Notes: generated by a model from the sequence alone, not told the origin. A stretch of DNA of 64,000 nucleotides from Minisyncoccota bacterium (GCA_041675085.1 JBAYUN010000001.1:87347-151346), one strand, 5' to 3'. Counted from the first letter of the stretch, positions 37,818 through 61,775 are shown. A program made the numbers and translations.

Positions 37818-37957
37818 CCCGTTAAATATTTTTGATTAATTTATAATTTTTATACATGTTATAATTCTTTAATTAAACTAATTTATTTATACCCGATATT
37901 TAAAATGTTTAACGGGATTCATACCCATATTATAACTGAAAAAGAGAGATATTAAAA

Positions 37958-39246: not shown

Positions 39247-39275
39247 ATTATTTTATATAAAGTTAATTTTAATAA

Positions 39276-39632
39276 TTATAATTTTTTGAAATTGATATAA
39301 GAAATAATTGTGACTACTAGTACTCCCACAGCAAAACCATATTGAGAAATATCATCTCCTACAAACAAATGAGAAGCTATAGCTCCAACTAAATCTATAA
39401 AAAATCCAGCATAAGCCCATTCACGAAGATTTGGGAATTTATTTTGCCACAGAGCAATAACTCCTAAAAACTTTGCTGTACCTAAGATATACAACATATA
39501 CAGAGGGTAGCCCAAATGTACAAATTGATCTACGGCTACCTGACTAAAACTCAATTCTCCAAAAGCGCCCGCGAGCATTACAGCTGACAAAAGTCCAGTA
39601 AAAATATAATAAACAATTTTTGTGTTTTTCAT
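39276..39632 (-). CDS. DoxX-family membrane protein
   Basis: 118 aa, 4 TM, DoxX-like. Confidence 0.5.
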   Translation of the reverse strand: MKNTKIVYYIFTGLLSAVMLAGAFGELSFSQVAVDQFVHLGYPLYMLYILGTAKFLGVIALWQNKFPNLREWAYAGFFIDLVGAIASHLFVGDDISQYGFAVGVLVVTIISYINFKKL

Positions 39633-39716
39633 AATTTTATTATATCAATAAGCTTTTTAAAAAGGAAATAACAAAACTACCTTATATTATAAGTGCATTT
39701 AGGATAATTATGGATA

Positions 39717-40538
39717 CTATTTAAAACTACAAGTCAGAACACATTGCAAGGTACAGACTTCAGCATCTTTGTCGTGCCTACAAGCGGACGCACATCCGTT
39801 CCATTCTCCTCCCCGAGCCACACACATATTCTCAGAGAAAGAATTTATCTCACAAACATTACTACTCGCATACCATACTCCAGAGTTAGCTTCACATTCA
39901 CTTTTTGTTTTGATACTTAGTTTTTGATTACTATCACCTTTATCTATTATTACATCTTTATCTGTATTTACATTTGGATTTGGATTTGTATTTGTATTTG
40001 TATTATTTTGATTATTGGCATTACTTGATTCAGTACTACTCTCAAAAGGAAATTCTAAAATAGTCTCGTATTGATATACTGACGGCTTCACATCAGGTAA
40101 AGCTTCTTCAAAAGTTTTTCTCTCTACAAAATATGAATTCTCACCCTTTGTAACTTTAAATAGATAACCTAAACCTGCACCATAACATTGAGTCATAGAA
40201 GAGTTCGGAGCTATAATTTCTTTACTATCTTCTAAAACATTACAACTCGTAGGAGTCGTAGCTATAAACTTATTTTTAACTACTCCATTTTCATACATAA
40301 CTTCTAGAAAAACATTTGTATTAGGATTACCGTCTAGATTCAAAGTCTGAGCAGACTCGTATTTCCAATTAAAAGACGTAACTTTACCGTTTTGTATATC
40401 TTCTACTACTGGCAAAGGAGTAACCACTTCATTTTTAGCATCAAAAACATAAATTTTTAATATAAAGAATAATAAACCAAAGACCAATAATACTGCTAGC
40501 ACTAAGGCTCTACCCATAAAAAAATTTCTTGGTGTCAT
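39717..40538 (-). CDS. Secreted protein with Cys-rich C-terminal module (8 Cys in the last about 60 aa)
   Basis: Signal anchor; C-terminal CEANSGVW...CEINSF...CVARGGEWNGCASACRHD...CTLQCVLTC. Confidence 0.5.
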   Translation of the reverse strand: MTPRNFFMGRALVLAVLLVFGLLFFILKIYVFDAKNEVVTPLPVVEDIQNGKVTSFNWKYESAQTLNLDGNPNTNVFLEVMYENGVVKNKFIATTPTSCNVLEDSKEIIAPNSSMTQCYGAGLGYLFKVTKGENSYFVERKTFEEALPDVKPSVYQYETILEFPFESSTESSNANNQNNTNTNTNPNPNVNTDKDVIIDKGDSNQKLSIKTKSECEANSGVWYASSNVCEINSFSENMCVARGGEWNGCASACRHDKDAEVCTLQCVLTCSFK

Positions 40539-40585
40539 AATGTTTGTATTATAACATATTTTGCTCTATATAATCTAACAATGCT

Positions 40586-40831
40586 TTAACGATGAGGACA
40601 ACCAGCAAAACAACAAGGTCTTTTCTTCCCTGTTTTCAATTCTTCTATTGCTCTCTCTAGTCGACGCTCTCGCGTCTCTGTCTTCTTTGCAGAAATGATC
40701 CAACATATCCATTCATTACGAGCAAGAATAGTAATATCTCCCCAAGCCTCTTTGGACTTAGAATCAGCATTTAAAGCTTTCTTAAAATCTATAGGTTCTG
40801 TGTGAAATTTTTCTTTTTTCAGATTTTGCAT
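40586..40831 (-). CDS. YdeI/OmdA-family small protein (DUF1905-associated C-terminal domain)
   Basis: WIISAKKTETRERRLERAIEEL pattern. Confidence 0.45.
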   Translation of the reverse strand: MQNLKKEKFHTEPIDFKKALNADSKSKEAWGDITILARNEWICWIISAKKTETRERRLERAIEELKTGKKRPCCFAGCPHR

Positions 40832-40832
40832 T

Positions 40833-41249
40833 TTATCCTTTTTGAATCAAAGACAGGGCTCCTTTATTTTTTCTAATATTCTTATAATACCATTGTATAA
40901 CTTTAGATTTTTTAACCCAACGTTTTAGATCTTTAACTTTTACTTGTGATACGTCAGTATATCTAATTTCAGAAGCCTTAAAACTCCCTTCATTTTTCAA
41001 ATCTTTTTCTTCAAATGATTGCCCACTCCAAAACAACAATCTCACACAATCTTTTAATTTGTCATAACCAACAACAGGATTGCCGTCCAAAAACCATACC
41101 GGTGCCCCGTGCCAGATTTTATTCTCGGCTTCGGGTAAAGTATTAGTTATCTCTTCTGCTAAAAGTTTGCAAATTTTCTTATCACTTAGAGCCAGGGTAG
41201 CATTAAACTTTTTAATATATGGATTTATTTTGGGAATGATTTTCTGCAT
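40833..41249 (-). CDS. DUF1801 (YdhG-like) domain protein
   Basis: KIWHGAPVWFLDGNPVVGYDKLKDCVRLLFW pattern. Confidence 0.5.
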   Translation of the reverse strand: MQKIIPKINPYIKKFNATLALSDKKICKLLAEEITNTLPEAENKIWHGAPVWFLDGNPVVGYDKLKDCVRLLFWSGQSFEEKDLKNEGSFKASEIRYTDVSQVKVKDLKRWVKKSKVIQWYYKNIRKNKGALSLIQKG

Positions 41250-41261
41250 ATATTTTCCCCA

Positions 41262-41753
41262 TTACTCTTTAGGAGGAGTATCAAATCCAGCCCAAGCGTT
41301 GCTAGTACCTATATGGTGTACTCCATTTGCTTTAATGTACAAGAAAAGTTGCATCTTGTAAGCTGTGATCCATTTCAAAGCACTCAAAAGATGCATTGAT
41401 AATTTCTCATTCATTCCAAAGAAAGACACCTCACTATTCAATTGTTCATCTGTTAAGACTGACACTTGCTCATTTACTATTTTTATTTGCTCGTCAATTT
41501 TTGAAATAAAATTCTCAAAAGTTACAAGGTCTTTTGCTTTTGCTAATTCCATATATGAATTATTCACCGGGTCAACAAAAGACAAAATAGCCGTAGCTGA
41601 AATATGCCCTAAATATTGCATTAGTTCTAAAGTAGAACGTTGTTTCTCTGAAGGGCGATACTCGAGCATTTCGGGTGTTATCTTCTCTGCTAAATGTTTA
41701 ATAATTTCTAATTCCTTAACAAAACTTTTTATATATTGTTCTTTTGTAATCAT
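41262..41753 (-). CDS. DinB/YfiT-like four-helix-bundle protein (putative)
   Basis: Helical; His-containing motifs (LGHISA, VHHIG); weak assignment. Confidence 0.3.
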   Translation of the reverse strand: MITKEQYIKSFVKELEIIKHLAEKITPEMLEYRPSEKQRSTLELMQYLGHISATAILSFVDPVNNSYMELAKAKDLVTFENFISKIDEQIKIVNEQVSVLTDEQLNSEVSFFGMNEKLSMHLLSALKWITAYKMQLFLYIKANGVHHIGTSNAWAGFDTPPKE

Positions 41754-41877
41754 GTAAATATCATAGCATAAAAATACATAAAGCTACTCTAGAAATATTC
41801 TCTGTATTGACTTTTAGGACAAACTATTCTATAAATAGAAAGAATTTTTATTTATGTACCGTATTAAAAAATAAATT

Positions 41878-42177
41878 ATGAATACATTATGTATTTCAAA
41901 AGCCGTCAAATATTGGGGCGATTTTTTCACCGAGTTAAGATCTGACAAAATCGATGGTTTTAAAAAAGATTTAATAGAGTTCCTAGAAGAAGAGCTTAAT
42001 GAAGGAAATACAGTTATCTTAACCACAGATTGGGCTCCAGAAAATATTTTAAGAAATTTCCTACAAAAAAACGATTTACCAGAAAAATATTTTCCAAAAG
42101 AAGCAGTAATGTATATAAAAACCAATGAGGTTACAGCAAGAGAATCAGGAAAAGAAGTCCTGAGGTACCCGAATTAA
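41878..42177 (+). CDS. Hypothetical protein (99 aa)
   Basis: Hydrophilic ORF followed by a strong terminator; preferred over the overlapping minus-strand ORF. Confidence 0.35.
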   Translation: MNTLCISKAVKYWGDFFTELRSDKIDGFKKDLIEFLEEELNEGNTVILTTDWAPENILRNFLQKNDLPEKYFPKEAVMYIKTNEVTARESGKEVLRYPN

Positions 42178-42197
42178 AAAACAAAATATTTGTATTA

Positions 42198-42235
42198 AAG
42201 CCTTTTCATTAATTAATGAAAAGGCTTTTTATTTT
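42198..42235. terminator. Intrinsic terminator (14-bp stem AAAGCCTTTTCATT/AATGAAAAGGCTTT plus T-run), likely bidirectional
   Basis: Read directly. Confidence 0.55.
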
Positions 42236-42265
42236 GCCAATAAATTGAATAAACATCTCTTACCG

Positions 42266-43060
42266 TTACAACCTTTTTAAAATATCTTTTTTATAATGCT
42301 TCAAATAAGCCACAAGGATAAAGCTAATAATAACCAACAAGAACCATGAAGTTATCTTAGACGTTGAGACCACGGACCATTGATGAATTTGACTCGGATA
42401 TTTCCAAGCACCGAAATACGTAGCGATATTCTCTGCGATCCAGATAAAGAAAGCGATAAGCAGAAAGGCGACGTTCATATACATAGAGCGGACTTTATTT
42501 GTCACAATAAAATTAACTTTAGTTTTAAAGAATAAAATAAACACAAAGAATATCAAAAACCAACGGGCGTCATATATATAATGATTGGTAAAGAAGTTCA
42601 AATAAATCAAAGCACATAAAATCACGCTAAGAAGATAATGTTTATAATTCACGAGTTCTAATTTCATAATCTTCCAAGACTGACTGATATAACTACCTAC
42701 CGCTGCATACATAAACCCACTATATAGAGGCACAGTACCTATTTTAAAGAATCCCTCTTCCGGATAACTCCAAGAAGCAACTCCTGGACTCGTCTTGTAG
42801 AGTTCGAGCACAAGACCGATAATGTGGAAAAGGAATATTACTTTAACCTCATCTTTAGTTTCTAATTTTGTAAAATATAAAATAGCTTGAATGACAACAG
42901 CTGAAATAAAAAGAAAATCATAACGAGCAAAATTTTCTAAAGGAATATAATTTGAAATAAAAAGTAAAATAAAAAACAAGCCCGCAAATATAGACGCTCG
43001 GGCTTGTTTGATACCAAAAATCCAAAATTCGTAAATATAATTTTTAAACTTGCTCGACAT
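42266..43060 (-). CDS. Polytopic membrane protein (DUF817-like)
   Basis: 264 aa, about 8 TM. Confidence 0.4.
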   Translation of the reverse strand: MSSKFKNYIYEFWIFGIKQARASIFAGLFFILLFISNYIPLENFARYDFLFISAVVIQAILYFTKLETKDEVKVIFLFHIIGLVLELYKTSPGVASWSYPEEGFFKIGTVPLYSGFMYAAVGSYISQSWKIMKLELVNYKHYLLSVILCALIYLNFFTNHYIYDARWFLIFFVFILFFKTKVNFIVTNKVRSMYMNVAFLLIAFFIWIAENIATYFGAWKYPSQIHQWSVVSTSKITSWFLLVIISFILVAYLKHYKKDILKRL

Positions 43061-43475
43061 ACTTTTTAAAATTCTCGAGTATTGCAGACCAGCCTGCTTT
43101 TTGAAGTTCTACGCTATTAGTTTCTTCTGGGGAGAATTCTTCTACTATTTTAGTATCACCGTTTTCTAAAGTTGAGAAAAATATATCGCATTCTCTGTTA
43201 TTTTCTTCCCCTTCAGCTTTATCCATAACATATTTAATACTTTTATATTCTTCTACTTCTGTATATGTACCAGTAAAATCAAAACTCTCACTACCGTCTT
43301 TGGCAGACATGCGAGTCAAAAATCTCCCACCCACCTTCAAGTCATTCTCAGCATGAGGGCATTCCCAAGTATCCGTAGCAAAAGCCCAACTTTTAATACT
43401 TTCTGGATCGTTCCAGTGTTTCCAAACTTTTTCAATATTTGCATGCACAATTGTTTCTATATGTATTTTTTGCAT
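43044..43475 (-). CDS. SRPBCC / AHSA1-like (activator of Hsp90 ATPase homolog) domain protein
   Basis: IETIVHANIEKVWKHWNDPESIKSW...FDFTGTYTEVEEYKSIKY pattern. Confidence 0.55.
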   Translation of the reverse strand: MQKIHIETIVHANIEKVWKHWNDPESIKSWAFATDTWECPHAENDLKVGGRFLTRMSAKDGSESFDFTGTYTEVEEYKSIKYVMDKAEGEENNRECDIFFSTLENGDTKIVEEFSPEETNSVELQKAGWSAILENFKKYVEQV

Positions 43476-43496
43476 AATTTTATTATACTACGAAAT

Positions 43497-43865
43497 TTAA
43501 GATTTTAATTTCCCAGATTCTTCTTTTAATCTATGTTTAATAATCTTGGTAATCAGCGATATTGGCAAGGGCTTATCATAAGGAAACCGGATGCAACCTT
43601 TTGAATAGCTAATCCCCTTTTTAGCCAGTTCTTCCTCAAAAGGTTTTATGCCTGACGGAGACGGATAGAATCCGAGATGCCCTTTCATAGCAGCATAATG
43701 CACAAAGTTCTTGCTATTGAGCTCTACAGTCGGCATACCATATTTTATAGATTCTACGCCTTTTGGGACAAGTTTGTTTACCAAAGTTCGCATTTCTTTT
43801 AATTTAGGCAGAAAATCTTTTGGTGTGTCTTTTATGTATTCATTTATATTTTTGTAATTTTTCAT
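43497..43865 (-). CDS. DUF1801 (YdhG/YjdC-like) protein
   Basis: INEYIKDTPKDFLPKLKEMRTLV...KYGMPTVELNSKNFVHYAAMKGHLGFYP...GCIRFPYDKPLPISLI. Confidence 0.55.
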   Translation of the reverse strand: MKNYKNINEYIKDTPKDFLPKLKEMRTLVNKLVPKGVESIKYGMPTVELNSKNFVHYAAMKGHLGFYPSPSGIKPFEEELAKKGISYSKGCIRFPYDKPLPISLITKIIKHRLKEESGKLKS

Positions 43866-43876
43866 ATGTATTTTTT

Positions 43877-44251
43877 TTAATTAATCTTAACCTTTCGTAA
43901 AATTTTCTCCATATCTCGCCCTTTTGCCAATTCGTCTACCAATTTATCCAAATACCTAACTTTTTGAGTTAAAGGATTTTTAATATCTTCAATTCGATAA
44001 CCACATATCATCCCTTTTATTAAATGTGCATTTTGATTTATTTTTGCCTTATGGAAAAATTCTTCAAAAGTAGCTTTGTTGTTTATAAATTTCTTTAGAT
44101 TAGTTTCGGTATATCCTGTGAGCCATTTGATAACCTTATGTAGCTCTTCTTTTGTTCTACCTTTCTTCTCTACCTTTATTACATAATAAGGATAAACAGA
44201 AGAAAAAGTCATCCCCGCCATACGTTCATCATGCTTTTTTAAATCTTTCAT
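43877..44251 (-). CDS. DUF2200 family protein
   Basis: MAGMTFSSVYPYYVIKVEKKGRTKEELHKVIKWLTGY matches DUF2200. Confidence 0.6.
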   Translation of the reverse strand: MKDLKKHDERMAGMTFSSVYPYYVIKVEKKGRTKEELHKVIKWLTGYTETNLKKFINNKATFEEFFHKAKINQNAHLIKGMICGYRIEDIKNPLTQKVRYLDKLVDELAKGRDMEKILRKVKIN

Positions 44252-44292
44252 AATTTTATTATATCAGATTATGTTTTATAAAATCTAGAATT

Positions 44293-44712
44293 TTATAGCT
44301 TTAAATACACTTCGAAAGCATTTGCTAAATTATCTATAATATTATAATTCTTATAGTCTTCTGGTCTAATCCAGATATACTCATCATGATCTTTACTTAA
44401 AACTATATTTTCATTCAAAGTTTCGCAAACGAAATATACACCTATCACTTGCCAGTTCTCGTCTTTAACTTTTGGTCTCCATTCCCCAACGCAAAAAGAT
44501 TGCAAAACTTGAATCTCTAAACCAGTCTCCTCATAAACTTCCCTTTTCAAACTCTCTTCCAATTTCTCTCCGGGTTTTATTCGTCCTCCTGGGACGTCAT
44601 ATTTAGCAAAATTAGTCCCATCTTCATAACTTGAAGATTCTTTCAATATCAAAATCTCTCCTTTTGTATTTTTAATAAAACCTTTACTCGCGACGAATAG
44701 TTTGTAATCCAT
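44293..44712 (-). CDS. NUDIX hydrolase
   Basis: Nudix box GGRIKPGEKLEESLKREVYEETGLEI. Confidence 0.75.
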   Translation of the reverse strand: MDYKLFVASKGFIKNTKGEILILKESSSYEDGTNFAKYDVPGGRIKPGEKLEESLKREVYEETGLEIQVLQSFCVGEWRPKVKDENWQVIGVYFVCETLNENIVLSKDHDEYIWIRPEDYKNYNIIDNLANAFEVYLKL

Positions 44713-44719
44713 GCTTTTA

Positions 44720-45238
44720 TTATATTAAATTTAAAGATTTATAATCCTTTATTAAACTTAAAGCTGTTTGTTTTTCAGTTGGGTTTTCTATATTATCTGC
44801 CCAGTTAGTTGCTTCAGTCAAATCGTCATTTGCCAAAAAATATAATAATTTTGTTATTTGATTCGAATTACGATTATCTTTATATTCAAGAGCTTTAGTT
44901 GAATACAATTTTGCTTTTTCTTTATCTTTCTTTTGAAAAAGAGCGCAACTAGTAGCGTGATGATACCAAAACCAAAGTATCGATTCTTTAGTATCTTTTT
45001 CTTCTTTTGTTAAACCAATATCTCCAACATTCTCTATCAAATTTTTAATTTTATTTATAATCAAATCAGAGTCCTCATAATCCCAAGAATAACTATCCAT
45101 CAATCTTTGATCTTCTTGAAAATACAAATCATGCAATTCTGCTGAATTTAGAACATCAAAAGTAGAATAAATAGAGTGCAAAGGACTTTCGTTTTTAGGT
45201 AAATCCCCTTCTGAATTATTTGTAAATGATTCTTTCAT
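44720..45238 (-). CDS. Hypothetical helical (TPR-like?) protein, 172 aa
   Basis: ORF with own leaderless promoter; no motif. Confidence 0.4.
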   Translation of the reverse strand: MKESFTNNSEGDLPKNESPLHSIYSTFDVLNSAELHDLYFQEDQRLMDSYSWDYEDSDLIINKIKNLIENVGDIGLTKEEKDTKESILWFWYHHATSCALFQKKDKEKAKLYSTKALEYKDNRNSNQITKLLYFLANDDLTEATNWADNIENPTEKQTALSLIKDYKSLNLI

Positions 45239-45270
45239 GCTTTTATTATACTATAAATTTAGAATTTATT

Positions 45271-45293
45271 TTAGCAAGGACGGTCCTTGCTAA
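45271..45293. repeat. 23-bp perfect palindrome TTAGCAAGGACGGTCCTTGCTAA, copy 1 of 3
   Basis: Identical copies at 45271-45293, 48381-48403 and 49258-49280. Confidence 0.7.
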
Positions 45294-45296
45294 TTA

Positions 45297-45335
45297 ACAA
45301 AACCCTTACTCGCGACGAATAGTTTGTAATCCATG
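45297..45335 (-). repeat. Duplicate (37/38 nt) of the NUDIX gene start plus upstream; forms a 14-codon remnant ORF (MDYKLFVASKGFVN) that ends inside the palindrome
   Basis: aaaacc[t/c]ttactcgcgacgaatagtttgtaatccatg present at 44677-44712 and 45297-45335. Confidence 0.65.
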
Positions 45336-45346
45336 TTTTGATTATA

Positions 45347-45742
45347 CTACAAATTCTCATCAAGGAACTTTTTTAAAGCAATCAAATCTTTCTTTTCTTT
45401 GTCATAATGATAAGAAATAATTCCTACTGATTCGGCGGATTTTGCAGCATCAGAATTGTGTTCAAAATAAATAACATCATTTTTATCAAAATTATATGTA
45501 TCAAGCAAGGTTTTAAAATAAACAGGTTCTACTTTATCAGGATTATGCTTCATTGTAAAAACAGGATAAGGCACAGAATCAAGACCAAATTTAATGATTT
45601 GCTCATCGTCAGCATTAGTTAGGATAAGTTTTGGATTTGGATATGTTTCAAGTAAATCAAATAATTCTTTATATTGAATATAATTACCTGCCTCGTTTTT
45701 TAGAATTATAGTATTCACCGCATCAATAAGTATCGTTTTCAT
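45347..45742 (-). CDS. Small HAD-like fold protein with degenerate motif I (putative)
   Basis: ILIDAVNTI (DxxxT instead of DxDxT), VIYFEHNSDAAKSAESVGI motif-IV-like; weak. Confidence 0.3.
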   Translation of the reverse strand: MKTILIDAVNTIILKNEAGNYIQYKELFDLLETYPNPKLILTNADDEQIIKFGLDSVPYPVFTMKHNPDKVEPVYFKTLLDTYNFDKNDVIYFEHNSDAAKSAESVGIISYHYDKEKKDLIALKKFLDENL

Positions 45743-45754
45743 ATTTTTATTATA

Positions 45755-46081
45755 CTACAATCTAAATTCAAAATTAATAATCTTAACTTCTGTGTCTTTA
45801 TTTACTTTATCTCCATAGAATTTCTTAAAATCCGAATACATATCTTCATCAGAATCATACCGAGCGTGCCCTACCCAGTCTTCTTCATTCAAAGTACCAA
45901 GGGTTTTAATTTTAAGAGAAATTATTTTCCCATATCCAAAAGTCTCAAGAGTTTCTTTGTTTATAAATTCAAGCTCATCCCCAAGTTTTAAATCCTTATC
46001 ATCAAAAAGCCTCCAAGTAGTAGTCTTTTCTCCTGTCAGTATTTTATCAACTAAATCTGAATTAAATTTTATGGGTTTCAT
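45755..46081 (-). CDS. ASCH (PUA-like) domain protein
   Basis: VDKILTGEKTTTWRLFDDKDLKLGDELEF resembles the ASCH core. Confidence 0.45.
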   Translation of the reverse strand: MKPIKFNSDLVDKILTGEKTTTWRLFDDKDLKLGDELEFINKETLETFGYGKIISLKIKTLGTLNEEDWVGHARYDSDEDMYSDFKKFYGDKVNKDTEVKIINFEFRL

Positions 46082-46095
46082 TATATTGCTTACAT

Positions 46096-47022
46096 TTAAT
46101 TATTGATATATTTAGGAAATACCAACTGGAACATTTCAGCCTCTTTTAACAACCATTCAAAGTAATCGCTCCATTTAGCCTCATTTTCAAAATCACCTTT
46201 TAGGGAAATCTTAATTCTACTAGCCTTCTTGTTAGGTAACTCCATCCATTCTAATTTTTCATTTAATTCACCTTCTATTTTATCTTTATTACTCAAGATA
46301 TTAGCATACAGCTCTTTATTATTTGAGATATAAATCTCTACACCAAGAAACCCGTCTCTTGAATTAAGAGTCAAAGAAAGACTACATTCACTGCTACCAA
46401 TACTTATGTTTGTCCAATGTTGAGGATAACTTTTTTGAAAACGCAATTTAGTATTATTTTGTTTTGCAAAACTTTTGAATTCATCCCAAAATTGAAGTTG
46501 TTTAATTTTAGTTTCAGTTAGCTCTAAACTTTCAGTAGTACTCTTTAAGACTTTTGCCCAATCATTGGGCTTTGAAATTATTTCAAACTTAGGAGCAAAA
46601 GGAGAATCAGCAATTTGCCAAAGTTCTATCTTTAACAAATAGAAACCAATCTCTTCATTGGTATTTTCATTAAGCCAGTCTATTGCTTTTCTATGTTCTT
46701 CTCTAACATCCTTAACTACCCATAAAATAATCCTTGCATCATAACCAGAAGCATAAGTGATAAGTTTACCTAAATGATCATGATTAGTTATCTCTAACTG
46801 ATTTTCAATAATTATTTTATGACCAGTACTTTCTTCTTCTGCCAGAATATCAACATTAAAACTCCCAACTTTTGCTTCAGTCTGAATTAATTTTATGTCA
46901 AAACCAATTTCATCACCCAAGAGATCAAGATTTTCTTCTTGTGCTAACCATTTAGTAAAGTCATTAGCTTCATGTTTCCAACCTTCACGTAATTCAATTT
47001 TTTTAAGTTTTCCTAAATTCAT
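46096..47022 (-). CDS. PD-(D/E)xK / NucS-like nuclease-fold N-terminal domain plus DUF4268-like C-terminal domain protein
   Basis: ELREGWKHEANDFTKWLA..LGDEIG..IQTEAKVGSFNVDILAEE..GHKIIIENQL (D..E.Q) pattern. Confidence 0.4.
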   Translation of the reverse strand: MNLGKLKKIELREGWKHEANDFTKWLAQEENLDLLGDEIGFDIKLIQTEAKVGSFNVDILAEEESTGHKIIIENQLEITNHDHLGKLITYASGYDARIILWVVKDVREEHRKAIDWLNENTNEEIGFYLLKIELWQIADSPFAPKFEIISKPNDWAKVLKSTTESLELTETKIKQLQFWDEFKSFAKQNNTKLRFQKSYPQHWTNISIGSSECSLSLTLNSRDGFLGVEIYISNNKELYANILSNKDKIEGELNEKLEWMELPNKKASRIKISLKGDFENEAKWSDYFEWLLKEAEMFQLVFPKYINN

Positions 47023-47310
47023 ATTAATATTTATTAATGTTTTATTAATTTACCTACATATCCCTAATAAGTTCCAATTTCTTGTCTCTACTCCATCGCT
47101 TCAACTCCGCCTCTCGTTTTCTGGATTCGTTATATGTCTCGAATTCTTCTTTGTATTTTAGGATTACTGGTCGGCGGATTTTTGTATAATGGGCACCAGA
47201 TTTTGAATTATTATGCTATACCAATCTACGTTCTAGGTTATTTGTAGACCCTACGTACAAGGTTTTGTCTTTGCATTCTAAGATATAAACAAAATACATA
47301 ATAAGTAAAA

Positions 47311-47706
47311 CTAAAAATTACCGCTCAAGTACAAACCTAAAACTGTCATAGACAGCATAAGAATAGCAGGAATACTTTTTACAAAAGAATCTCTGACTTT
47401 AATATGCATACCGATAGCTCCAAGCATAAGGATAGCTAGGATTGCCAAAGCAGGCAAACCAAACAAAGCTAAAATATTTGCACTAAATAATCCGAGAATC
47501 ATAACGAGAGATATTGCTAGTTTTAAAAAGCCAACAATATACATAAACCAAACAGGTAGACCATAAGCAGAGAATTCTTCTTGCATGTTTTTTGCTCCCG
47601 CGCCACGATATTTTGTAGCCATAGAGAATCTCAAAATCCAAACATTAATAAGTCCAAAAGCAATGATAATTTGCAAAAAAGGCAGAACGAAAATATTTAT
47701 TTCCAT
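47311..47706 (-). CDS. DoxX-like 4-TM membrane protein
   Basis: 131 aa, four TM helices. Confidence 0.45.
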   Translation of the reverse strand: MEINIFVLPFLQIIIAFGLINVWILRFSMATKYRGAGAKNMQEEFSAYGLPVWFMYIVGFLKLAISLVMILGLFSANILALFGLPALAILAILMLGAIGMHIKVRDSFVKSIPAILMLSMTVLGLYLSGNF

Positions 47707-48011
47707 ATGAAAAAAATTATTAATAATATATACAAATTATCAACTAATATACATCGCTTTGCAAGGGTTTTAAATCTATTTAAATATCTAGTGCTTATAG
47801 CTATTAGTCAAAATGCACACTAGTTGTTTGCAATATAATTCTCTACTGCATGAATATCGATTAACTGATGTGGATGTTCATCGTCAGCTAGTTCTTTTTT
47901 ATAAGCAACTAAATCACGAGGATCAATAAGTGAAATTTCAATAGCATTGATTGTTTTAGATATTGTGGGGAATTTTCTAAAATGATCTTTTGTTTGAAAC
48001 CATTCTGTCTG

Positions 48012-48332
48012 CTATTTATTACTCATTTTCAAAGTATCAATATCTGTAATATCAATATCTTGATTATTATAGTTTAAACACAAGGTATCGCAATCCCACT
48101 TTGCATTTAAATAATGTTTTGGTCCAGAAGTAATATAATCTTTAGCTTCCGAAACGATGATAGGAAAATATTCTCCAGGCAATGAAAAATCTAAATCATT
48201 TACAGGACGAGATGAGCCATATACATGCGCAGCAAACCCTCCTCCAATACGGTAAGGTATATTGTGTTTATTTAATATACCTACGATCCATTTAAGTGCA
48301 TTTATTGTTTTTTCTTCTAATTTTATTTCCAT
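48012..48332 (-). CDS. ANT(2'')-like nucleotidyltransferase, N-terminal 106 aa; an in-frame TAG is followed by a further 63 open codons (47823-48011), so this is a disrupted gene or read-through candidate. ATG start at 48332 (MEIKLEEK); ORF track used an upstream TTG.
   Basis: IPYRIGGGFAAHVYGSSRPVNDLDFSLPGE is close to the ANT(2'')-Ia core LPLWIGGGWAIDARLGRVTRKHDDIDLTFPGE; downstream frame checked codon by codon. Confidence 0.5.
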   Translation of the reverse strand: MEIKLEEKTINALKWIVGILNKHNIPYRIGGGFAAHVYGSSRPVNDLDFSLPGEYFPIIVSEAKDYITSGPKHYLNAKWDCDTLCLNYNNQDIDITDIDTLKMSNK

Positions 48333-48380
48333 AAGAATATTATAATACAATCAATTTATTTTTTTGAGTTTTAGCGAGTT

Positions 48381-48403
48381 TTAGCAAGGACGGTCCTTGC
48401 TAA
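48381..48403. repeat. 23-bp palindrome copy 2, with tandem GCTAAAACTC duplication at one end
   Basis: Read directly. Confidence 0.7.
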
Positions 48404-48434
48404 TTATTTCCATATGAAAAAAATTATTAATAAT
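48404..48434 (-). repeat. Duplicate of the DoxX-like gene start region (47697-47727), giving a 9-codon remnant (MEIISKDRPC) that runs into the palindrome
   Basis: tttccatatgaaaaaaattattaataatat present twice. Confidence 0.6.
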
Positions 48435-48510
48435 ATTTTAAGTATACCATTTCGACCGTACTTGAGCACCTTTAAAAGCAGTAAATTTAAGTTATTTTTT
48501 ATTAATCTAC

Positions 48511-49209
48511 CTAAGAGGTAAATCTACATTTTGGAAAGGCTGAACACCCTAAGAATTTACCAAACTTACCTTCTTTTTCCAAAAGCTCATTGCCACATTT
48601 AGGACAAACTTGTTTAATATTATTTGCTTTAACAGTATCAACCTTTTTAACATTTTGAGCTATCCTGACATATTCAATCAACTTAAAGCTATCAACAAGT
48701 TCTATTGGTTTATCTTCTGCGAATTTTTCTGCTTCAAGAGTAAATTTATTTGTTGTTATAAAATACCCTTTACCATTCGCAACATGATCTGCTAATGCTC
48801 CATAAAAATCTCTCACAGCTCCAACTGGTACTTGGCTAGTGATGAACTTTTTACATTGTATGTAATTTATTATTCCGTTTTTTTCTGCAGTGACATCAAT
48901 TCCCCCATCATGTGACCTACCGACAGCATTTGTCTTATAGCCAAGTTGAAAGAAAAGATCAGCTATATATTTTTCAAATTCATTTGATTTCATTCCTCTA
49001 AGTTGCTGTAAAAGTTCTCTATCAGAACGCCATTCTTGACCATTTTTTATATTTCTTTTTCTTTTCCATTCAGCAATTTTATCTGGAACAATAACTTCAA
49101 GTAATATCTTTAATAACAATAATAATCCTAATCCAACCCAAATAGGCCATAAAGCAAAAAATCCGTGTAAAAAACTTTTATACAAAACAGAATAATCAAT
49201 AATTTGCAT
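48511..49209 (-). CDS. Membrane-anchored Mrr-type restriction-endonuclease catalytic domain protein with C-terminal topoisomerase-type C4 zinc ribbon
   Basis: GRSHDGGIDVTAEKNG..INYIQCKKF..VPVGAVRDFYGAL..KGYFITTNKFT (Mrr_cat pattern); CPKCGNEL..CSAFPKC zinc ribbon. Confidence 0.6.
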   Translation of the reverse strand: MQIIDYSVLYKSFLHGFFALWPIWVGLGLLLLLKILLEVIVPDKIAEWKRKRNIKNGQEWRSDRELLQQLRGMKSNEFEKYIADLFFQLGYKTNAVGRSHDGGIDVTAEKNGIINYIQCKKFITSQVPVGAVRDFYGALADHVANGKGYFITTNKFTLEAEKFAEDKPIELVDSFKLIEYVRIAQNVKKVDTVKANNIKQVCPKCGNELLEKEGKFGKFLGCSAFPKCRFTS

Positions 49210-49257
49210 AATTATATATTATCATAAAAGTGACAAAAGTGACCCAAAAGCAATACT

Positions 49258-49280
49258 TTAGCAAGGACGGTCCTTGCTAA
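49258..49280. repeat. 23-bp palindrome copy 3, with tandem TAATTAGCAAG duplication at one end
   Basis: Read directly. Confidence 0.7.
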
Positions 49281-49324
49281 TTACTTGCTAATTACAGATT
49301 TTTTAATACAATTTCTACTTATTT

Positions 49325-50221
49325 TTACGATTTCGTATATTCTAAAATAGTCTCATATACGATATCATCAGATATTTCATTAATATGACTCTTTATGATT
49401 TCTTCTTTTTCTTGATAAATATTAGAAAAAATTACATACATTTTCTCGTAAGCATCTTGAATACTTTGATACTTATTCTTTTTATTTAAATTTTTCTCAT
49501 CTTTAATTAGTTCATTTAAATAATTTCTAAAATAATTAATCTGATACATGGACTCTAGAATTATTTTACTTTGCATAGGATCATTCGCTAATTTTTTATT
49601 CCTATCAGCACTCTCACCTCCCCAAGTTTTGAGTAATTTTTCTGCACTAGATTGCCTTGTACCAACTACAACTTTTGGCACCAAAAGCTCTTTGTGCTCA
49701 CCTGTACTAGGATCTTCAAAATATTTCAACTTAGGAATAAGACCATTTTTTAATAACAATTTAATACCATCTAATTTAGAAATAATATTTCTTTTATCAT
49801 TAGCAAAAGCCACATCAACACCAAGACCGAGATATTCCTCAGAATCTTCTTCTCTGTATATAGAAACTATATCTACGCCGTATTTAATATCATCATACCT
49901 AGAAGCAGGGACTACTTCTGTATTTTCACCTAGCCAATTATTAGACTCTATCTGATCAGCTAAAACAGCTTCTAGTAAAGAAGAGAGTTCTGTTTTATAT
50001 TTTTGTTCTTCATTGTTATGGAAATTTTCTTCTATCTTTCGCATCTCTTCTAAGTCAGCAAGAATTTCACTTTCTGGATAGATATCAACAAAGTCCATTT
50101 CTTTTGGACGAAATTGATCAACAATTTTTGCCTTCTTCTCATGCAAATGTTTCATGAGTTTTGGATTCTCTGATAAAGGAATAGGTTTGATAAGATTCAA
50201 ATTTTCAAATTTAAAATTCAT
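49325..50221 (-). CDS. Hypothetical protein, 298 aa, acidic, no recognisable domain
   Basis: Clean ORF; upstream carries the GTCACTTTT x2 motif. Confidence 0.4.
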   Translation of the reverse strand: MNFKFENLNLIKPIPLSENPKLMKHLHEKKAKIVDQFRPKEMDFVDIYPESEILADLEEMRKIEENFHNNEEQKYKTELSSLLEAVLADQIESNNWLGENTEVVPASRYDDIKYGVDIVSIYREEDSEEYLGLGVDVAFANDKRNIISKLDGIKLLLKNGLIPKLKYFEDPSTGEHKELLVPKVVVGTRQSSAEKLLKTWGGESADRNKKLANDPMQSKIILESMYQINYFRNYLNELIKDEKNLNKKNKYQSIQDAYEKMYVIFSNIYQEKEEIIKSHINEISDDIVYETILEYTKS

Positions 50222-50357
50222 TGCTGTGATGATTGAGCTAGAACCCCATGGCTCCGTACCCTGTAATATTATTTTTAATACTTATATTGTATCATTTCTA
50301 CACTACTTGAGCACGTCAAAAAGTGACAAAAGTGACACAAATCAAGAAAAAATAAAA

Positions 50358-50388
50358 AAGCCTAAGTTTTTCTTAGGCTTTTATTTTA
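50358..50388 (-). terminator. Intrinsic terminator after the 413-aa gene (AAGCCTAAG/CTTAGGCTT, flanked by A and T runs; bidirectional)
   Basis: Read directly. Confidence 0.6.
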
Positions 50389-50406
50389 GTAAATTTATTG
50401 TAATAC

Positions 50407-51648
50407 CTATACTAATGGTATTTCAGGGGATACATACCCATCCGCACATTCTATCCAAAAATTTGCAACATCAAAATTTTCAATTTCAGAAGTTTCAATT
50501 TTATCAACACTATTCCAAAAACTTTCTGTTGTTACTGGTCTCAGATACACAGTTTTTTGATTTGGCTCCGTTAAATCTAATTGAATACCAATAACGTTAA
50601 CATGAACACGGCTACGAATTATATTCACTACTTCAGAAGTATACAAAGTTTTATGTACTGCTTTTGCCCAATTAATGAACCTTGTTTTATTTTCTTCGTC
50701 ACTTAATTCAAAGTTTGGCTCACAAGTTTTCCATAGATCTCTTAAACTTTCTGAATTATCAATAATACTTTGCAGTTGTTCTACAATACCAGGAGGTATT
50801 ATAAATTTAATACTTTTTTCAGGAATTGTACCGCTTCCAATCACATTAACTTGTGGAAAAATCTTATGTGAATGCATCATAAAAAAAGATAGACTATTTT
50901 TATGAGGAACAGCATCAATAATCTCTGATGAACTACTCTGGAGCCAAGACATCCCACCGCTTGCAGATGGTCCACTTAATTCCAAGCCACCATTTTTTGT
51001 ATTAACAAAAGCAAAAGATTTTGCACCAGCCAGATTCCGTATTCTATCCAAAGATTCTCCAATATTACAAAATTCTTTACAGGTACTAATTAAATAATCA
51101 ATATCTTCCATTCTTTCTTTCTTAATTAATCCATTTAATTTCTCTCGTATTCCCTCTAATGCTTGAATAAATGCAAGAGAAGGGGTCCCAATATGAGAAA
51201 ACCCAACATTACTACTAAAATTTCTAAATGGTGAAGATTCTGAAGAGAGTTGAGGTAAAGCTACCTTATTTTTTTGTAACCTTGCTTCAACTTCATCTTT
51301 GACCTCTAGCCAATTATTCATAAGTTGTTCAAATTCACGTGCAAGATGAAGTGTGAAAAGATTTGGATTCATTACTCCAGAACTTGCATACATGTATTTT
51401 TTATTTTCATGCTCTACATAATCACCAGCAGCTATACCAATTGCTGGCTTCCGTCCAGGTATAAAATGTACATTTTCACAGAAAATAATTAAATACATTA
51501 ACGATATAACGTCATCAGGAAAGGTTAAAGGTTCCCCAAATTCAGCTACTTCAAATGATGTCTCACTTTTCATTTGTGCAAGGGCATCATTTACTTTTTT
51601 GATAATTGTTAAGTCGCTAAACAATTCATCTAATTTTGGATGTTTCAT
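50407..51648 (-). CDS. Hypothetical protein, 413 aa, no recognisable domain
   Basis: Clean monocistronic ORF with own terminator and a palindromic site near its promoter. Confidence 0.4.
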   Translation of the reverse strand: MKHPKLDELFSDLTIIKKVNDALAQMKSETSFEVAEFGEPLTFPDDVISLMYLIIFCENVHFIPGRKPAIGIAAGDYVEHENKKYMYASSGVMNPNLFTLHLAREFEQLMNNWLEVKDEVEARLQKNKVALPQLSSESSPFRNFSSNVGFSHIGTPSLAFIQALEGIREKLNGLIKKERMEDIDYLISTCKEFCNIGESLDRIRNLAGAKSFAFVNTKNGGLELSGPSASGGMSWLQSSSSEIIDAVPHKNSLSFFMMHSHKIFPQVNVIGSGTIPEKSIKFIIPPGIVEQLQSIIDNSESLRDLWKTCEPNFELSDEENKTRFINWAKAVHKTLYTSEVVNIIRSRVHVNVIGIQLDLTEPNQKTVYLRPVTTESFWNSVDKIETSEIENFDVANFWIECADGYVSPEIPLV

Positions 51649-51854
51649 TTTTATTTATTTAAGTTTTGCAATATTGCTTTTTAGAAACCAAACTGACATC
51701 CAAAAAGCAATACTGAAACTTGATTTCAAAGATCTAATATGCTTTATATATAACATATTTTAAGTTTTTGTCAACAGCAAATCATGATACTATGGGCAAT
51801 ATGTGTTGTTTTGATCGTAGTGATGTATGGGAAATTTTCGTCCAAAATTCTGCC

Positions 51855-52769
51855 TTAACAATTAAGAGCCTTTCTCCATCCAGAATCCAAAGCATCTTCT
51901 TCAGAACAGAACCATTTCTCCCCTTTTGATTCATCAATGATAGTCGCATTATATGATCCACAACCTGGCACATGATATATGTATTCTTTCTTTGAATTGA
52001 TATTACCTTTAATGATGCAAGAGTTATTTTGATTTGTTTCTGTTGAAGTTACTGGAGTAGATTGGGTTTGAGTAGTAGTCGATGCGACAGGAGCGACTAC
52101 AATAGGTGCTACAGTGACTCCATTACATTTATCTCCCCACAATCCAGCTTTAGTGTCCTCTGCTTGTTTTTGAGCGTTCTTGTATTCTGTTTGATATTTG
52201 TATTTAGAATCGTATGTATATTCATATGCATATCCAGTTTGAATCATTTTAAGTCCAAAGTTTGTGCCATCTTCTAGAAAGATATATCTAAGTAATCTAC
52301 TATATTTATCTCTATCTCCTTGAGATGAATCTGATTCTAGCTTTACTGATTTATTAGATAACAATGATTTAGCTTGATTCGATGCTTCAATACCAAAACA
52401 CTCTACAGGTTTTCTAGGATCTACTGTTTCAGGAGTATTAATACCTATCATTCTTATTCTCTCAATGGTCCCATTGATATCTACGTCTATTGTGTCTCCG
52501 TCTACTACTCTGGTTACTTTGTAGTATTGTTGTGTATTTGTAGGTGCTACTGTAACAGTCTCAGGAGCTTTGGGAGTTTCTACAACAGGAGCTATTGGTA
52601 ATACTTCTTTCAAGATTTCATCGATTGATTCTTCTTCTGCTAATTCAGTATTTATAGCTTCCACTTCTCCAATCTTATCTTCTACAGACGGACCACCGCT
52701 TGAGATTATTGAGATGAAGATTATTGGGATTATTATGTAGAGGATGTATTTGTAGTTTTTAATTTCCAT
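51855..52769 (-). CDS. Secreted thermonuclease (SNase/staphylococcal-nuclease fold) with C-terminal Cys-containing domain
   Basis: Signal anchor; TRVVDGDTIDV...RMIGINTPE...ECFGIEASNQAK...DRDKYSRLLRYIF SNase catalytic pattern; C-terminal CIIKGNINSKKEYIYHVPGCGSYN..WFCSEEDALDSGWRKA. Confidence 0.75.
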   Translation of the reverse strand: MEIKNYKYILYIIIPIIFISIISSGGPSVEDKIGEVEAINTELAEEESIDEILKEVLPIAPVVETPKAPETVTVAPTNTQQYYKVTRVVDGDTIDVDINGTIERIRMIGINTPETVDPRKPVECFGIEASNQAKSLLSNKSVKLESDSSQGDRDKYSRLLRYIFLEDGTNFGLKMIQTGYAYEYTYDSKYKYQTEYKNAQKQAEDTKAGLWGDKCNGVTVAPIVVAPVASTTTQTQSTPVTSTETNQNNSCIIKGNINSKKEYIYHVPGCGSYNATIIDESKGEKWFCSEEDALDSGWRKALNC

Positions 52770-53549: not shown

Positions 53550-53609
53550 ATATGTTTATTTTGATATAAAACTTAACTAACGGTTCATATTTAGTTATGC
53601 TTAAAGAAA

Positions 53610-54152
53610 TTGTTCACAATAAAACATCAAAATATGAGCTTAGACATGTTTATTAGACCTCTTGATCATAATACGGTTAAAGAGATAGCCACAGAGTTCC
53701 CTGCTTTCGAGCAGGTAGATGGTATAAAATTCCATTCTGTAAATGGTATTAACTATGGATGCTTTTCAGCACTTATCAATGATGCACACGCCACATTATG
53801 TTATCTGAAGTATGGTTGGTGTGTAGTTGTTGCACCAGGAGTCGCCTTGCCACCAACAAAACTGACCCCTCCTCGCGAGTACTTGGTTAACTTGGTTGAG
53901 GTAGATTTAGAAACAGACGTTATATCTATTTGGGAATGTAATAGCAATACGGGAATGGCTGGTGAGATCACCCGTTTTGCTTTTGATAAGTGGAATACTT
54001 CTGGTACCAAATCAAGCTGCACTTTTCTAGTTCTTATCCCAAGATTGGAAAATAACCGCAAGAACATTATTGGCGTGGCGATTATGAAAATTGGTCGTGA
54101 AATCAAAATTGAGTTCAAAAGAGACGGCAAGAGTATGCCTGCACTCAATTAA
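53610..54152 (+). CDS. Hypothetical protein, 180 aa (locally higher GC)
   Basis: ORF followed by a clear + strand terminator. Confidence 0.4.
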   Translation: MFTIKHQNMSLDMFIRPLDHNTVKEIATEFPAFEQVDGIKFHSVNGINYGCFSALINDAHATLCYLKYGWCVVVAPGVALPPTKLTPPREYLVNLVEVDLETDVISIWECNSNTGMAGEITRFAFDKWNTSGTKSSCTFLVLIPRLENNRKNIIGVAIMKIGREIKIEFKRDGKSMPALN

Positions 54153-54160
54153 AATTATCA

Positions 54161-54191
54161 TGAGGAAGTTGAAAAACTTCCTCATTTTTAT
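54161..54191 (+). terminator. Intrinsic terminator (ATGAGGAAGTT/AACTTCCTCAT plus TTTTTAT)
   Basis: Read directly. Confidence 0.6.
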
Positions 54192-58542: not shown

Positions 58543-58967
58543 AAGTAAATTATAATTTATAAAAGATGATTTTTAACCTGTTGATTGTTTACTCTTGCAA
58601 AAAAGTAATATTGTTCTATAATTAAACCAGTTCTTTGGAATTATTTATACGGTAGCTCAACAATGAATTTGCATCCTATTTTTGGAGCGATTCGTATGTT
58701 GGTACAACGAGGAACTTTTCTATTGTATGGATTAATTGTATCTTATGCTTTGACGGTCGGTTTAAGGAAACACCTTAACTCAGGCAAAAGGATAAAATAA
58801 ATCTAAACAAGAAACTGGTGTGGAGTTGGTAATTTGGTAGCCGCTTTTAGCGTGCTAATAGATTGCCAATTCTACGTCAATAAAAGTTAAAATAATATTG
58901 AAAAAGAAAAAGGCGGCTACCAAGTCGTTTTTTTTGTTTGTCTATTATTAAATTTAACCTAAAAAAT

Positions 58968-60293
58968 ATGTCTGAAAAAATTAAAATCGTGCATGTGCAT
59001 GTGAGCGAGCTTAAAGTTGCTGACTATAATCCCCGTAAGTGGGATAAGGAATCTGAAGCTCAACTAAAAGAAAGTATTAAGAAGTATGGTATTGTCGATC
59101 CTTTATTAGTAAACGGTGCCGAGGAAAGAAAAAATATTGTTATCGGTGGACACTTTAGACTGGCTGTGATTAAAGAGCTTGGAATAGAAGAAGTGCCAGT
59201 CGTCTACATTAATATTCCTGACATTGAAAAAGAAAAAGAACTGAATCTTAGGCTTAATAAAAATACTGGAGAGTTTGACTTTGATCTACTTGCTAAATTC
59301 GATGAAAGTTTTTTAGCCGATGTTGGTTTTAGTTCTGAAGAAATGGATAAGATATTTGAAGAAGAAAAAGAAGAAGAGCAATTTGATTTAAACAAAGAAT
59401 TAGAAAAATTAAATATCGAAAAGATAACTGTCGAAAAGGGTGACGTCTACGATTTAGATGGTTCACGACTTATGTGTGGCGACAGTACTATAGAAGCAGA
59501 TATGTTAAAGCTTTGTGGTGAACATAAAATAGATATGGTTATGACTGATCCGCCATATATACTGGATTACTTACACGGAAAAACAAAACAAGGTAAAGCA
59601 ACTGAAGGGTTTGGTGCAAAGAAGAACCGTAGATATCTTGAGACAGATGTATTGCCTGATAACTTTACTGAATTATGGATGGCAAACGTACACAAAGTTC
59701 AAGCCGACAACTTCTCTATTATTTGCTATGAGAATTGGAAAAACATTAGAATCATTTGGAATGAAATGGATAAGTATTGGAAGGTAAAGAATATGCTCGT
59801 ATGGCACTTAGCTAATAGGAATCAGGGATATGCAGGTAAGCATAAATTCTTTTCTAAATACGATATAGCCATGGTTGCTACTAATACAGAACATAGTGGA
59901 TTACAAACTGAACCAGAAGAAGAATTACTTGAGAATGAATACAATACTGCTTTGTTTGCCATATCAGGTTCTCCTCAGTGGGAAAGCTATGGTAAAGGTA
60001 AAAAATATTGTCCTACTGATCATATAGAACACTTAGCAGCTGACGAGAAATCTTCAGGTCAAGGTATTATCTTTGGTACGAAACCACTAGAGATATTAAT
60101 CCCCTACATCAAAGTATTAACTACTAGAGATCAGCTCGTTCTCGAGCCATTTGGTGGCTCAGGATCCACATTAATTGCGTCTATAAAGATAAAGCGTAGG
60201 TGCTTTCTAATGGAAAAATCACCAGTTTATGCTGAAGTTATTCTTAATCGTTGGGAGAAGTTTACTGGTAAGAAAAGAGTCAAAATATCTTAA
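58968..60293 (+). CDS. ParB-like nuclease domain fused to beta-class DNA methyltransferase (N6A or N4C); ORF track starts at TTG 58938, ATG at 58968 preferred
   Basis: N-terminal ParB/Srx fold (VHVSELKVADYNPRKW..IVIGGHFRLAV); MTDPPY (motif IV) precedes EPFGGSGST (motif I). Confidence 0.75.
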   Translation: MSEKIKIVHVHVSELKVADYNPRKWDKESEAQLKESIKKYGIVDPLLVNGAEERKNIVIGGHFRLAVIKELGIEEVPVVYINIPDIEKEKELNLRLNKNTGEFDFDLLAKFDESFLADVGFSSEEMDKIFEEEKEEEQFDLNKELEKLNIEKITVEKGDVYDLDGSRLMCGDSTIEADMLKLCGEHKIDMVMTDPPYILDYLHGKTKQGKATEGFGAKKNRRYLETDVLPDNFTELWMANVHKVQADNFSIICYENWKNIRIIWNEMDKYWKVKNMLVWHLANRNQGYAGKHKFFSKYDIAMVATNTEHSGLQTEPEEELLENEYNTALFAISGSPQWESYGKGKKYCPTDHIEHLAADEKSSGQGIIFGTKPLEILIPYIKVLTTRDQLVLEPFGGSGSTLIASIKIKRRCFLMEKSPVYAEVILNRWEKFTGKKRVKIS

Positions 60294-61491: not shown

Positions 61492-61775
61492 AAACTTTGG
61501 ACGGTTTTATTTAGCCAAGTGGTAGCAAAAAGCTCCTAGCCAGGCCGACTACACCCTTGAGTGTAACCCATACCCCTTTCGAGATATGACCGTCCAAAGT
61601 AGCTCTGACTAAGAGTTCTTTACTTTGGACGGATTTATGACCATATCCTATAAACATTAAGGTTTTTAGGGGTTAGGTCGCTTATTAAGTTATAAAATAA
61701 TTCTAGCACATTTCAAGTGCTTTTGACATCCTAGCTTAGATTAGGAATTAGTGGTAATTAGTTACCAACAGATGA

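Follow-up and report, generated by a model that had tools for sequence, protein, structure and literature searches.

Protein families enriched in the candidate phyla radiation (CPR) are mostly poorly annotated; of the 106 described by Meheust et al. (2019, PMC6744442), the majority (76) have transmembrane (TM) helices, with links to pili and to the surface of the cell. Genomic islands, some of which carry restriction-modification (R-M) systems, have been documented in Patescibacteria as well (PMC12455944). The stretch of DNA analyzed here, referred to as the window, spans 64,000 nucleotides of a Candidatus Paceibacterota (CPR/Patescibacteria) chromosome (Minisyncoccota bacterium, a metagenome-assembled genome with a 529-kb contig, GCA_041675085.1, JBAYUN010000001.1:87347-151346), and the four genes under study occupy its positions 48511-52769, all on the minus strand. 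They encode a 232-amino acid (aa) protein with a Mrr_cat domain and a zinc ribbon (48511-49209), a cytoplasmic 298-aa protein (WC011_00850, 49325-50221), a cytoplasmic 413-aa protein (WC011_00855, 50407-51648) and a surface-anchored 304-aa protein of the SNase family (51855-52769). On balance, we lean towards seeing them as four unrelated and independently transcribed neighbors bordering a strain-variable zone, the 298-aa protein being the product of a lineage gene and having a PD-(D/E)xK core. Like the CPR-enriched families above, the 298-aa family is poorly annotated, widespread in the CPR and rare elsewhere; unlike the bulk of them, its protein is soluble and has the look of an enzyme acting on nucleic acids.

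The four open reading frames (ORFs) are present at exactly the coordinates given in an initial annotation of this DNA, which had described them as a candidate defense island. Its calls of an Mrr-like nuclease with a zinc ribbon and of an SNase-family nuclease were borne out by profile searches (Mrr_cat, 1.7e-25; Zn_ribbon_Top1, 2e-14; SNase, 1.2e-23), as was the membrane tether it proposed for the Mrr-type protein, where an N-terminal hydrophobic helix was found. Single helices of this kind occur at the N-terminus of the 232-aa and 304-aa proteins (KD19 2.49 and 2.09, respectively), and a hydropathy scan gave none in the 298-aa or 413-aa protein. These two proteins had been described as lacking any recognizable domain and as the best candidates for an undescribed function; the former description holds, as neither protein has a significant match in Pfam, NCBIfam, PADLOC or PHROGs and neither family is described in a library. 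Individual scans of family members (sets of 51, 78 and 34) likewise gave no consistent library match for either family.

The AlphaFold (AF2) model of the 298-aa protein is of high confidence (predicted local distance difference test, pLDDT, 92.1) and contains an alpha-beta-beta-beta-alpha-beta core at approximately residues 71-190, set between helical N- and C-terminal parts; the fold matches to it are weak. The search for remote homology, which the initial annotation had named as a check, gave weak PD-(D/E)xK matches in Foldseek for the 298-aa model and no convincing match in the PDB for either the 298-aa or the 413-aa model. The Foldseek list for the 298-aa model was headed by R.SwaI (E 0.05, prob 0.87, a weak match), followed by further weak matches to the SPARDA nuclease, Nt.BspD6I, BamHI, Cap4, the arenavirus L endonuclease, Dna2 and HinP1I, all of which contain PD-(D/E)xK-fold nuclease domains. 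Of the 50 best matches, over half were PD-(D/E)xK nucleases.

Conservation was assessed in an alignment of 78 family members with a mean column identity of 23%. Seven residues are invariant (F44, E84, D110, D111, D117, D136 and Y167) and another eight are at least 90% conserved (D56, W96, G98, G115, K149, K166, P182 and Q227). In the model, the first core helix carries E84, strand 2 begins at D117 and strand 3 contains D136, so that three invariant acidic residues occupy the secondary-structure positions expected of a PD-(D/E)xK active site; the predicted order of the core elements would also fit the superfamily, which includes R.SwaI, BamHI and the nuclease domains of SPARDA and Cap4. Because the Foldseek matches and the invariant acidic residues both fit, we consider it somewhat probable from the model that the 298-aa protein is a divergent PD-(D/E)xK-fold enzyme.

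Two observations weigh against this assignment. The (D/E)xK motif has lost its lysine and reads D136-V-[T/A]-F, and sequence profiles tie the family to no solved structure or Pfam family. The protein also differs from the superfamily in lacking a significant sequence or structure score, in having T or A in place of the motif lysine, and in possessing an additional invariant DD pair (110-111) and large helical extensions at both ends. As judged from the alignment, K149 on the next helix might be a candidate substitute for the lost lysine. Two profile matches were discarded: that of one distant member to DUF4365 (E 0.0023) was not repeated in the 78 members and is at chance level, and that of the family to the small alarmone synthetase RelP (E 0.04) covers only the N-terminal helices and is insignificant.

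The missing lysine, the weakness of all fold matches and the fact that RelP is the best sequence-profile match in the PDB could instead indicate that the 298-aa protein is no nuclease at all and is rather a nucleotidyltransferase or alarmone synthetase-like enzyme, a phosphatase or a non-catalytic scaffold. We regard this as unlikely, although it is the alternative that fares best. The RelP alignment does not reach beyond the N-terminal helices, the stretches concerned being flagged as insignificant, and D110/D111 are found in a short helix and not on a strand. In the pol-beta fold, the usual nucleotidyltransferase arrangement puts the acidic pair on a strand. A scaffold, furthermore, would not be expected to retain five invariant acidic residues across 78 members, and PD-(D/E)xK nucleases account for most of the leading structural matches.

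If the PD-(D/E)xK assignment is correct, E84, D117 and D136 together with D110/D111 would form an acidic cluster binding Mg2+, with K149 standing in for the lysine of D-x-K. The protein would then be a cytoplasmic metal-dependent nuclease or phosphodiesterase, and its predicted target would be the nucleic acids of the cell itself, in RNA processing or in DNA repair and recombination, rather than those of phages. Soluble, confidently modeled, found throughout Patescibacteria and equipped with an invariant acidic site, the family is yet absent from Pfam, NCBIfam, PADLOC and PHROGs. As a nuclease of this fold with a cellular role, it would be a concrete enzyme in a major bacterial radiation whose core is largely without annotation.

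The distribution of the 298-aa family is that of a lineage gene. A word-index search gave 53 relatives of approximately 300 aa with 35-88% identity, and all matches with a named source were from Paceibacterota/Patescibacteria. In a scan of one genome per species, at least 120 matches were confirmed by tblastn, all assignable to CPR and ranging over Paceibacterota, Jorgensen-, Yanofsky-, Niyogi-, Adler-, Colwell-, Magasanik- and Falkowbacteria, among others. No relative was found in IMG/VR or among GenBank phages (INPHARED). Some records are titled “uncultured Gammaproteobacteria/Bdellovibrionales bacterium”, in conflict with their gene content (L026, L028, L031, L032, L039, L047, L051, L052, L054, L060, L077 and also L048, from metagenome-assembled genomes made by co-assembly), and others “Saccharibacteria”. 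The titles outside CPR are unreliable; in L051, for example, the neighbors are 70-88% identical to those in a locus of Magasanikiibacteriota. The “Saccharibacteria” titles are doubtful too, L014 having 88% identity to the query from Paceibacterota. Local synteny is preserved among related genomes, and the protein of one clade diverges somewhat faster than its neighbors (57-58% versus 70-92% identity, L051/L046 compared with L055). The gene is vertically inherited and lineage-wide in Patescibacteria, in which respect it differs, as it does in its housekeeping contexts, from the PD-(D/E)xK enzymes of R-M and defense systems.

Neighbors were clustered over 84 non-redundant loci, and no family occurred in more than 12 of these. 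The commonest were isoleucyl-tRNA synthetase (IleRS), an ABC transporter, L19, RluA, TsaE, Trp/TyrRS, a DEAD helicase and RNase J, with ribonucleotide reductase (RNR), RecG, HAD, TrmD, TruB and YceG among the others; none of the 25 most frequent families is a defense family. Immediate neighbors on the same strand (n = 94) included RluA-type pseudouridine synthases (n = 10), TsaE (n = 4), IleRS, class II RNR and RecG (n = 3 each) and Trp/TyrRS (n = 2). Individual loci place the gene with pol III delta', Dus and SerRS, with YceG and pentose-phosphate genes, with S16, KhpA and TrmD together with RpoB and RpoC, or with TruB, IF3 and L20. From this gene context, we further infer a housekeeping role in nucleic-acid metabolism. 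A function in RNA processing would fit the repeated placement by genes for RluA, TsaE, TrmD, TruB and aminoacyl-tRNA synthetases. Brown et al. reportedly described, in 2015, intervening sequences in the rRNA genes of CPR bacteria, and their removal would be one conceivable, if improbable, role of a 298-aa nuclease. As a separate observation, one of the surveyed loci (L027:2232-5897) encodes an IleRS with a His_Phos_1 (histidine-phosphatase) domain inserted between the catalytic halves.

The surroundings of the 298-aa gene were compared with those in close relatives at the DNA level. In L014, DUF817 (window 43068-42271) comes after the 298-aa homologue (88% identical), with window 37817-33535 next in line; in L004, a DoxX_2 gene precedes the homologue and the same conserved block as in L014 follows. 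The synteny in these two loci identifies the 298-aa gene as a conserved anchor and the window at 37.8-49.3 kb as a plasticity zone. More exactly, the strain-variable zone extends over 37818-49329, with conserved genes (36456-37817) on one side and the 298-aa gene on the other, where synteny breaks relative to L014, L004 and L001/L002. By Pfam, its cargo consists of DsbD, thioredoxin, two DoxX_2, two DUF1801, DinB-like, DUF817, AHSA1, DUF2200, NUDIX, ASCH, DUF4268/PDC-S11 and Mrr genes. These are mostly small miscellaneous stress or “odd-job” genes, with a defense flavor confined to DUF4268/PDC-S11 and Mrr. Since genomic islands are documented in Patescibacteria (PMC12455944), a variable zone containing a lone Mrr-type gene is unremarkable.

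The adjacency of the four genes is strain-specific. In L001/L002, the 413-aa gene with its leader and terminator (window 51788-50340, 90.6% DNA identity) is joined almost directly to DoxX (47749-47298), and this junction lacks window 50339-47750, with the genes for the 298-aa and Mrr-type proteins as well as a nucleotidyltransferase pseudogene. Neither is the SNase gene found upstream of the 413-aa homologue in L001/L002, and the Mrr gene is absent from the corresponding position in L001/L002 and L014. A conserved module of the 298-aa and 413-aa genes is thereby contradicted: the adjacency is lost in 90%-identical relatives, and the two families co-occur nowhere else (in none of the 84 loci is a 413-aa relative present within 6 kb of the 298-aa relative). 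Comparison of the family profiles with hhalign showed no relation between them. Two genes that might have been taken for 298-aa relatives beside a 413-aa homologue, the 297-aa “HEPN_AbiV (weak)” gene of L001 and the 296-aa gene following the 413-aa homologue P0056 (L013), which would have made a conserved pair, proved to be unrelated. The nucleotidyltransferase-like gene inside the inserted segment (47820-48350, minus strand), recognized in the sequence by its GG...GSSRPVNDLD motif, has an in-frame TAG at 48012-48014 beyond which the frame runs on for 64 codons, and is a probable pseudogene or assembly error.

The initial annotation had regarded the 298-aa and 413-aa genes as monocistronic, each with its own promoter and terminator. 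Terminator-like hairpins are enriched approximately fourfold (11 found, compared with 2.6 +/- 1.8 expected from shuffled sequence), and those after the 413-aa, 298-aa and Mrr genes support separate transcription units, so that the four genes look monocistronic and independently transcribed. Promoter-like hexamer sites are not enriched (42 versus 39.4 expected), and the part of the claim that concerns promoters comes down to a reading of the sequence. The hairpin 3' of the 413-aa gene lies at 50356-50382, and homology with the relative in L001 stops just past it, at 50340. The one 3' of the 298-aa gene (49258-49280) is the terminator-like 23-nt palindrome TTAGCAAGGACGGTCCTTGCTAA, of which identical copies are present downstream of the Mrr gene (48381-48403) and at 45271-45293; no such repetition is expected by chance. 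All three copies are in intergenic spacers of the variable zone, at cassette borders, and behave like a REP-type (repetitive extragenic palindromic) or terminator cassette. Here and in the next paragraph, the features are given for the minus strand.

The region had also been described as rich in repeats, which are real and non-random. A direct repeat of GTCACTTTT (two copies, operator-like, 50319-50336) is situated just upstream of the promoter region of the 298-aa gene. An 18-nt site, GTCACTTTTGTCACTTTT, precedes both the 298-aa and the Mrr gene, its second, identical copy (49226-49243) being located in the spacer that separates the hairpin from the start codon of Mrr; two matches were reached in just 2 of 100 shuffles. 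The promoter-like region of the 298-aa gene (50265-50323, TTGACG...TACAAT) forms a 59-nt repeat with a 75%-identical copy downstream of the Mrr gene (48420-48478). A 97% duplicate of the promoter and start-codon region of DoxX (original at 47694-47729) lies at 48401-48436, and we read it as a scar left by recombination or insertion where the Mrr cassette ends. The leader of the 413-aa gene is conserved with L001 as far as 51788 and contains a 20-nt inverted repeat (51666-51718) downstream of a TTGACA-N17-TATATA promoter-like site. It also contains the motif AGTATTGCTTTTNGG, found again at 49243-49257 upstream of the Mrr gene (0 expected).

Shared sites of this kind could point to a stress or defense regulon peculiar to this strain, in which the Mrr, 298-aa and 413-aa genes are controlled by one repressor acting on the GTCACTTTT direct repeats and AGTATTGCTTTTNGG, a housekeeping nuclease having been recruited beside the Mrr nuclease. 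The identical GTCACTTTTGTCACTTTT sites before two of the genes, AGTATTGCTTTTNGG near the third and the 298-type promoter copy downstream of the Mrr gene are all in keeping with this. However, none of the 98 related loci contains these motifs, not even those with close 298-aa homologues, and a gene for a regulator was not identified. The same pattern would result if intergenic cassettes were duplicated and recombined in the course of insertion. The duplicated DoxX start and the identical border hairpins point in that direction, which makes co-regulation rather improbable; we read the repeats at the junctions as scars of recombination among similar intergenic cassettes.

The 413-aa protein belongs to a separate, rare and rapidly diverging cytoplasmic family, with 42 representatives of approximately 410-430 aa and 22-36% identity; no relative was found in phage (INPHARED) or IMG/VR data. 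Locus searches based on alignments of the family encountered no conserved stretch or gave no confirmed match. Its AlphaFold model has a pLDDT of 90. The protein could represent a new fold, and with a high-confidence model and no relative in the PDB, the family is a second, smaller target for study. One member of 543 aa (P0077) carries a C-terminal extension of approximately 130 aa which by eye resembles the receiver domain of response regulators.

Six genomic contexts of 413-aa relatives are all housekeeping or miscellaneous, and no neighbor is common to the loci examined. One relative is found with HEPN_AbiV-like, GrpB and DoxX genes; one with GlnA3, SelR, DoxX and TfoX_C, a glycosylase and UvrD being nearby; one near pol III delta'; one adjoining RecG; and one in the order UvrB-x-gene-x-UvrA-UvrC-RecG. 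The sixth lies between IleRS/LspA and OmpA/ClpX in a bacterium of 46% GC which, because of its OmpA-type envelope genes and GC content, is probably outside the CPR.

The contexts with Uvr and RecG genes and with TfoX_C, a glycosylase and UvrD might suggest a role in DNA repair or recombination, and one member (P0069) has a borderline match to Pfam Phage_endo_I (E 2e-4), its sole PDB matches being the T7 endonuclease I entries 1fzr, 1m0d and 2pfj (E 0.006-0.011). A degenerate, junction-binding domain similar to T7 endonuclease I has been considered for the 413-aa protein on these grounds and is doubtful. P0069 alone gives such matches, the family profile does not, and the aligned catalytic E/D/E/K positions vary, so that unlike T7 endonuclease I the family has neither family-level similarity nor conserved catalytic residues; the link to repair is thin. 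Equally slim is the chance of the more ambitious reading in which the 298-aa family, as a housekeeping nuclease specific to Patescibacteria, replaces a missing usual enzyme, for example in the processing of rRNA or tRNA precursors, and, separately, the 413-aa protein has a new fold.

The least probable explanation is that of the initial annotation, a defense island in which the Mrr-like and SNase nucleases would work alongside the 298-aa and 413-aa proteins as new effectors or sensors against phages. The stretch does border a strain-variable zone, defense genes are reported from genomic islands of Patescibacteria (PMC12455944), and PADLOC models match the Mrr_cat domain (mREase_IV, PDC-S02, ZorD), the SNase (the candidate C3a212 SNc+LTD, 2e-46) and a DUF4268 gene 1.5 kb away (46096-47022, minus strand), whose full-length match to the candidate PDC-S11 (3e-121) is the strongest to a defense library in the neighborhood. 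These three are the only PADLOC matches near the studied genes, no known multi-gene defense system is present, and the remaining cargo includes DoxX, thioredoxin, NUDIX, ASCH and DUF1801. Homologues among housekeeping neighbors, which the initial annotation itself had named as the finding that would overturn its proposal, were observed in both families, without recurrent defense genes in the 84 loci of the 298-aa family or the six contexts of the 413-aa family (among them those between UvrB and UvrA and beside IleRS/LspA). With neither protein matching a family in PADLOC or PHROGs and the two never co-occurring elsewhere, a defense island is very unlikely and largely refuted by gene context. 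In the small and dense genomes of CPR bacteria, nucleases as neighbors are no evidence of a defense role.

The remaining two genes encode proteins of recognizable type. In the 232-aa protein, residues 71-179 match Mrr_cat (PF04471) over profile positions 2-113 of 115, that is, over its full length, and the C-terminus is a topoisomerase-type C4 zinc ribbon; the PADLOC models mentioned above cover the nuclease part only. It resembles Mrr and other type IV methyl-directed restriction enzymes in this domain and in its relatives, which occur in 588 records of plasmids as well as in a few phages and are annotated “restriction endonuclease”. In Mrr, the DNA-recognition domain is N-terminal, where the 232-aa protein has its TM helix. 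No Pfam domain was detected before residue 71, so that, unlike Mrr, the protein has a membrane helix before the nuclease domain and a zinc ribbon after it. It is an ordinary small accessory membrane-anchored nuclease of a type common on plasmids, with activity predicted from its sequence.

The 304-aa protein combines an N-terminal TM helix (residues 8-26) with an SNase domain (PF00565), that is, a nuclease domain with an export signal. It also matches NucI of NCBIfam (6.5e-33), with 113.7 bits falling below the equivalog cut-off of 250 bits. The SNase domain and the N-terminal export anchor are shared with the staphylococcal nuclease/thermonuclease NucI, from which the protein differs by a Thr/Val-rich low-complexity linker and a Cys-containing C-terminal sunset domain (NF051437, residues 253-301, 9.5e-09). 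Elsewhere in NCBIfam, the sunset domain is known from variant ribosomal proteins L17 and L20, and a literature search on “sunset domain” returned nothing relevant. Anchored outside the cell, the SNase would degrade extracellular nucleic acid, most plausibly for scavenging, since CPR bacteria are reported to be unable to make nucleotides (bioRxiv 10.64898/2026.07.13.738296).

Further features were observed elsewhere in the window. Overlapping ORFs on opposite strands (53600-54190) putatively encode proteins of 180 and 115 aa, the former without a match in Pfam or NCBIfam, and a strong bidirectional terminator-like palindrome is present at 54160-54185. A 451-aa protein in which the N-terminal domain of ParB is fused to an N6/N4 DNA methylase is encoded on the plus strand at 58938-60293. 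Between two minus-strand genes, 61547-61679 (minus strand) matches the Rfam LOOT RNA family (RF03000) over its full length, with 79.3 bits where the gathering score is 46.4.

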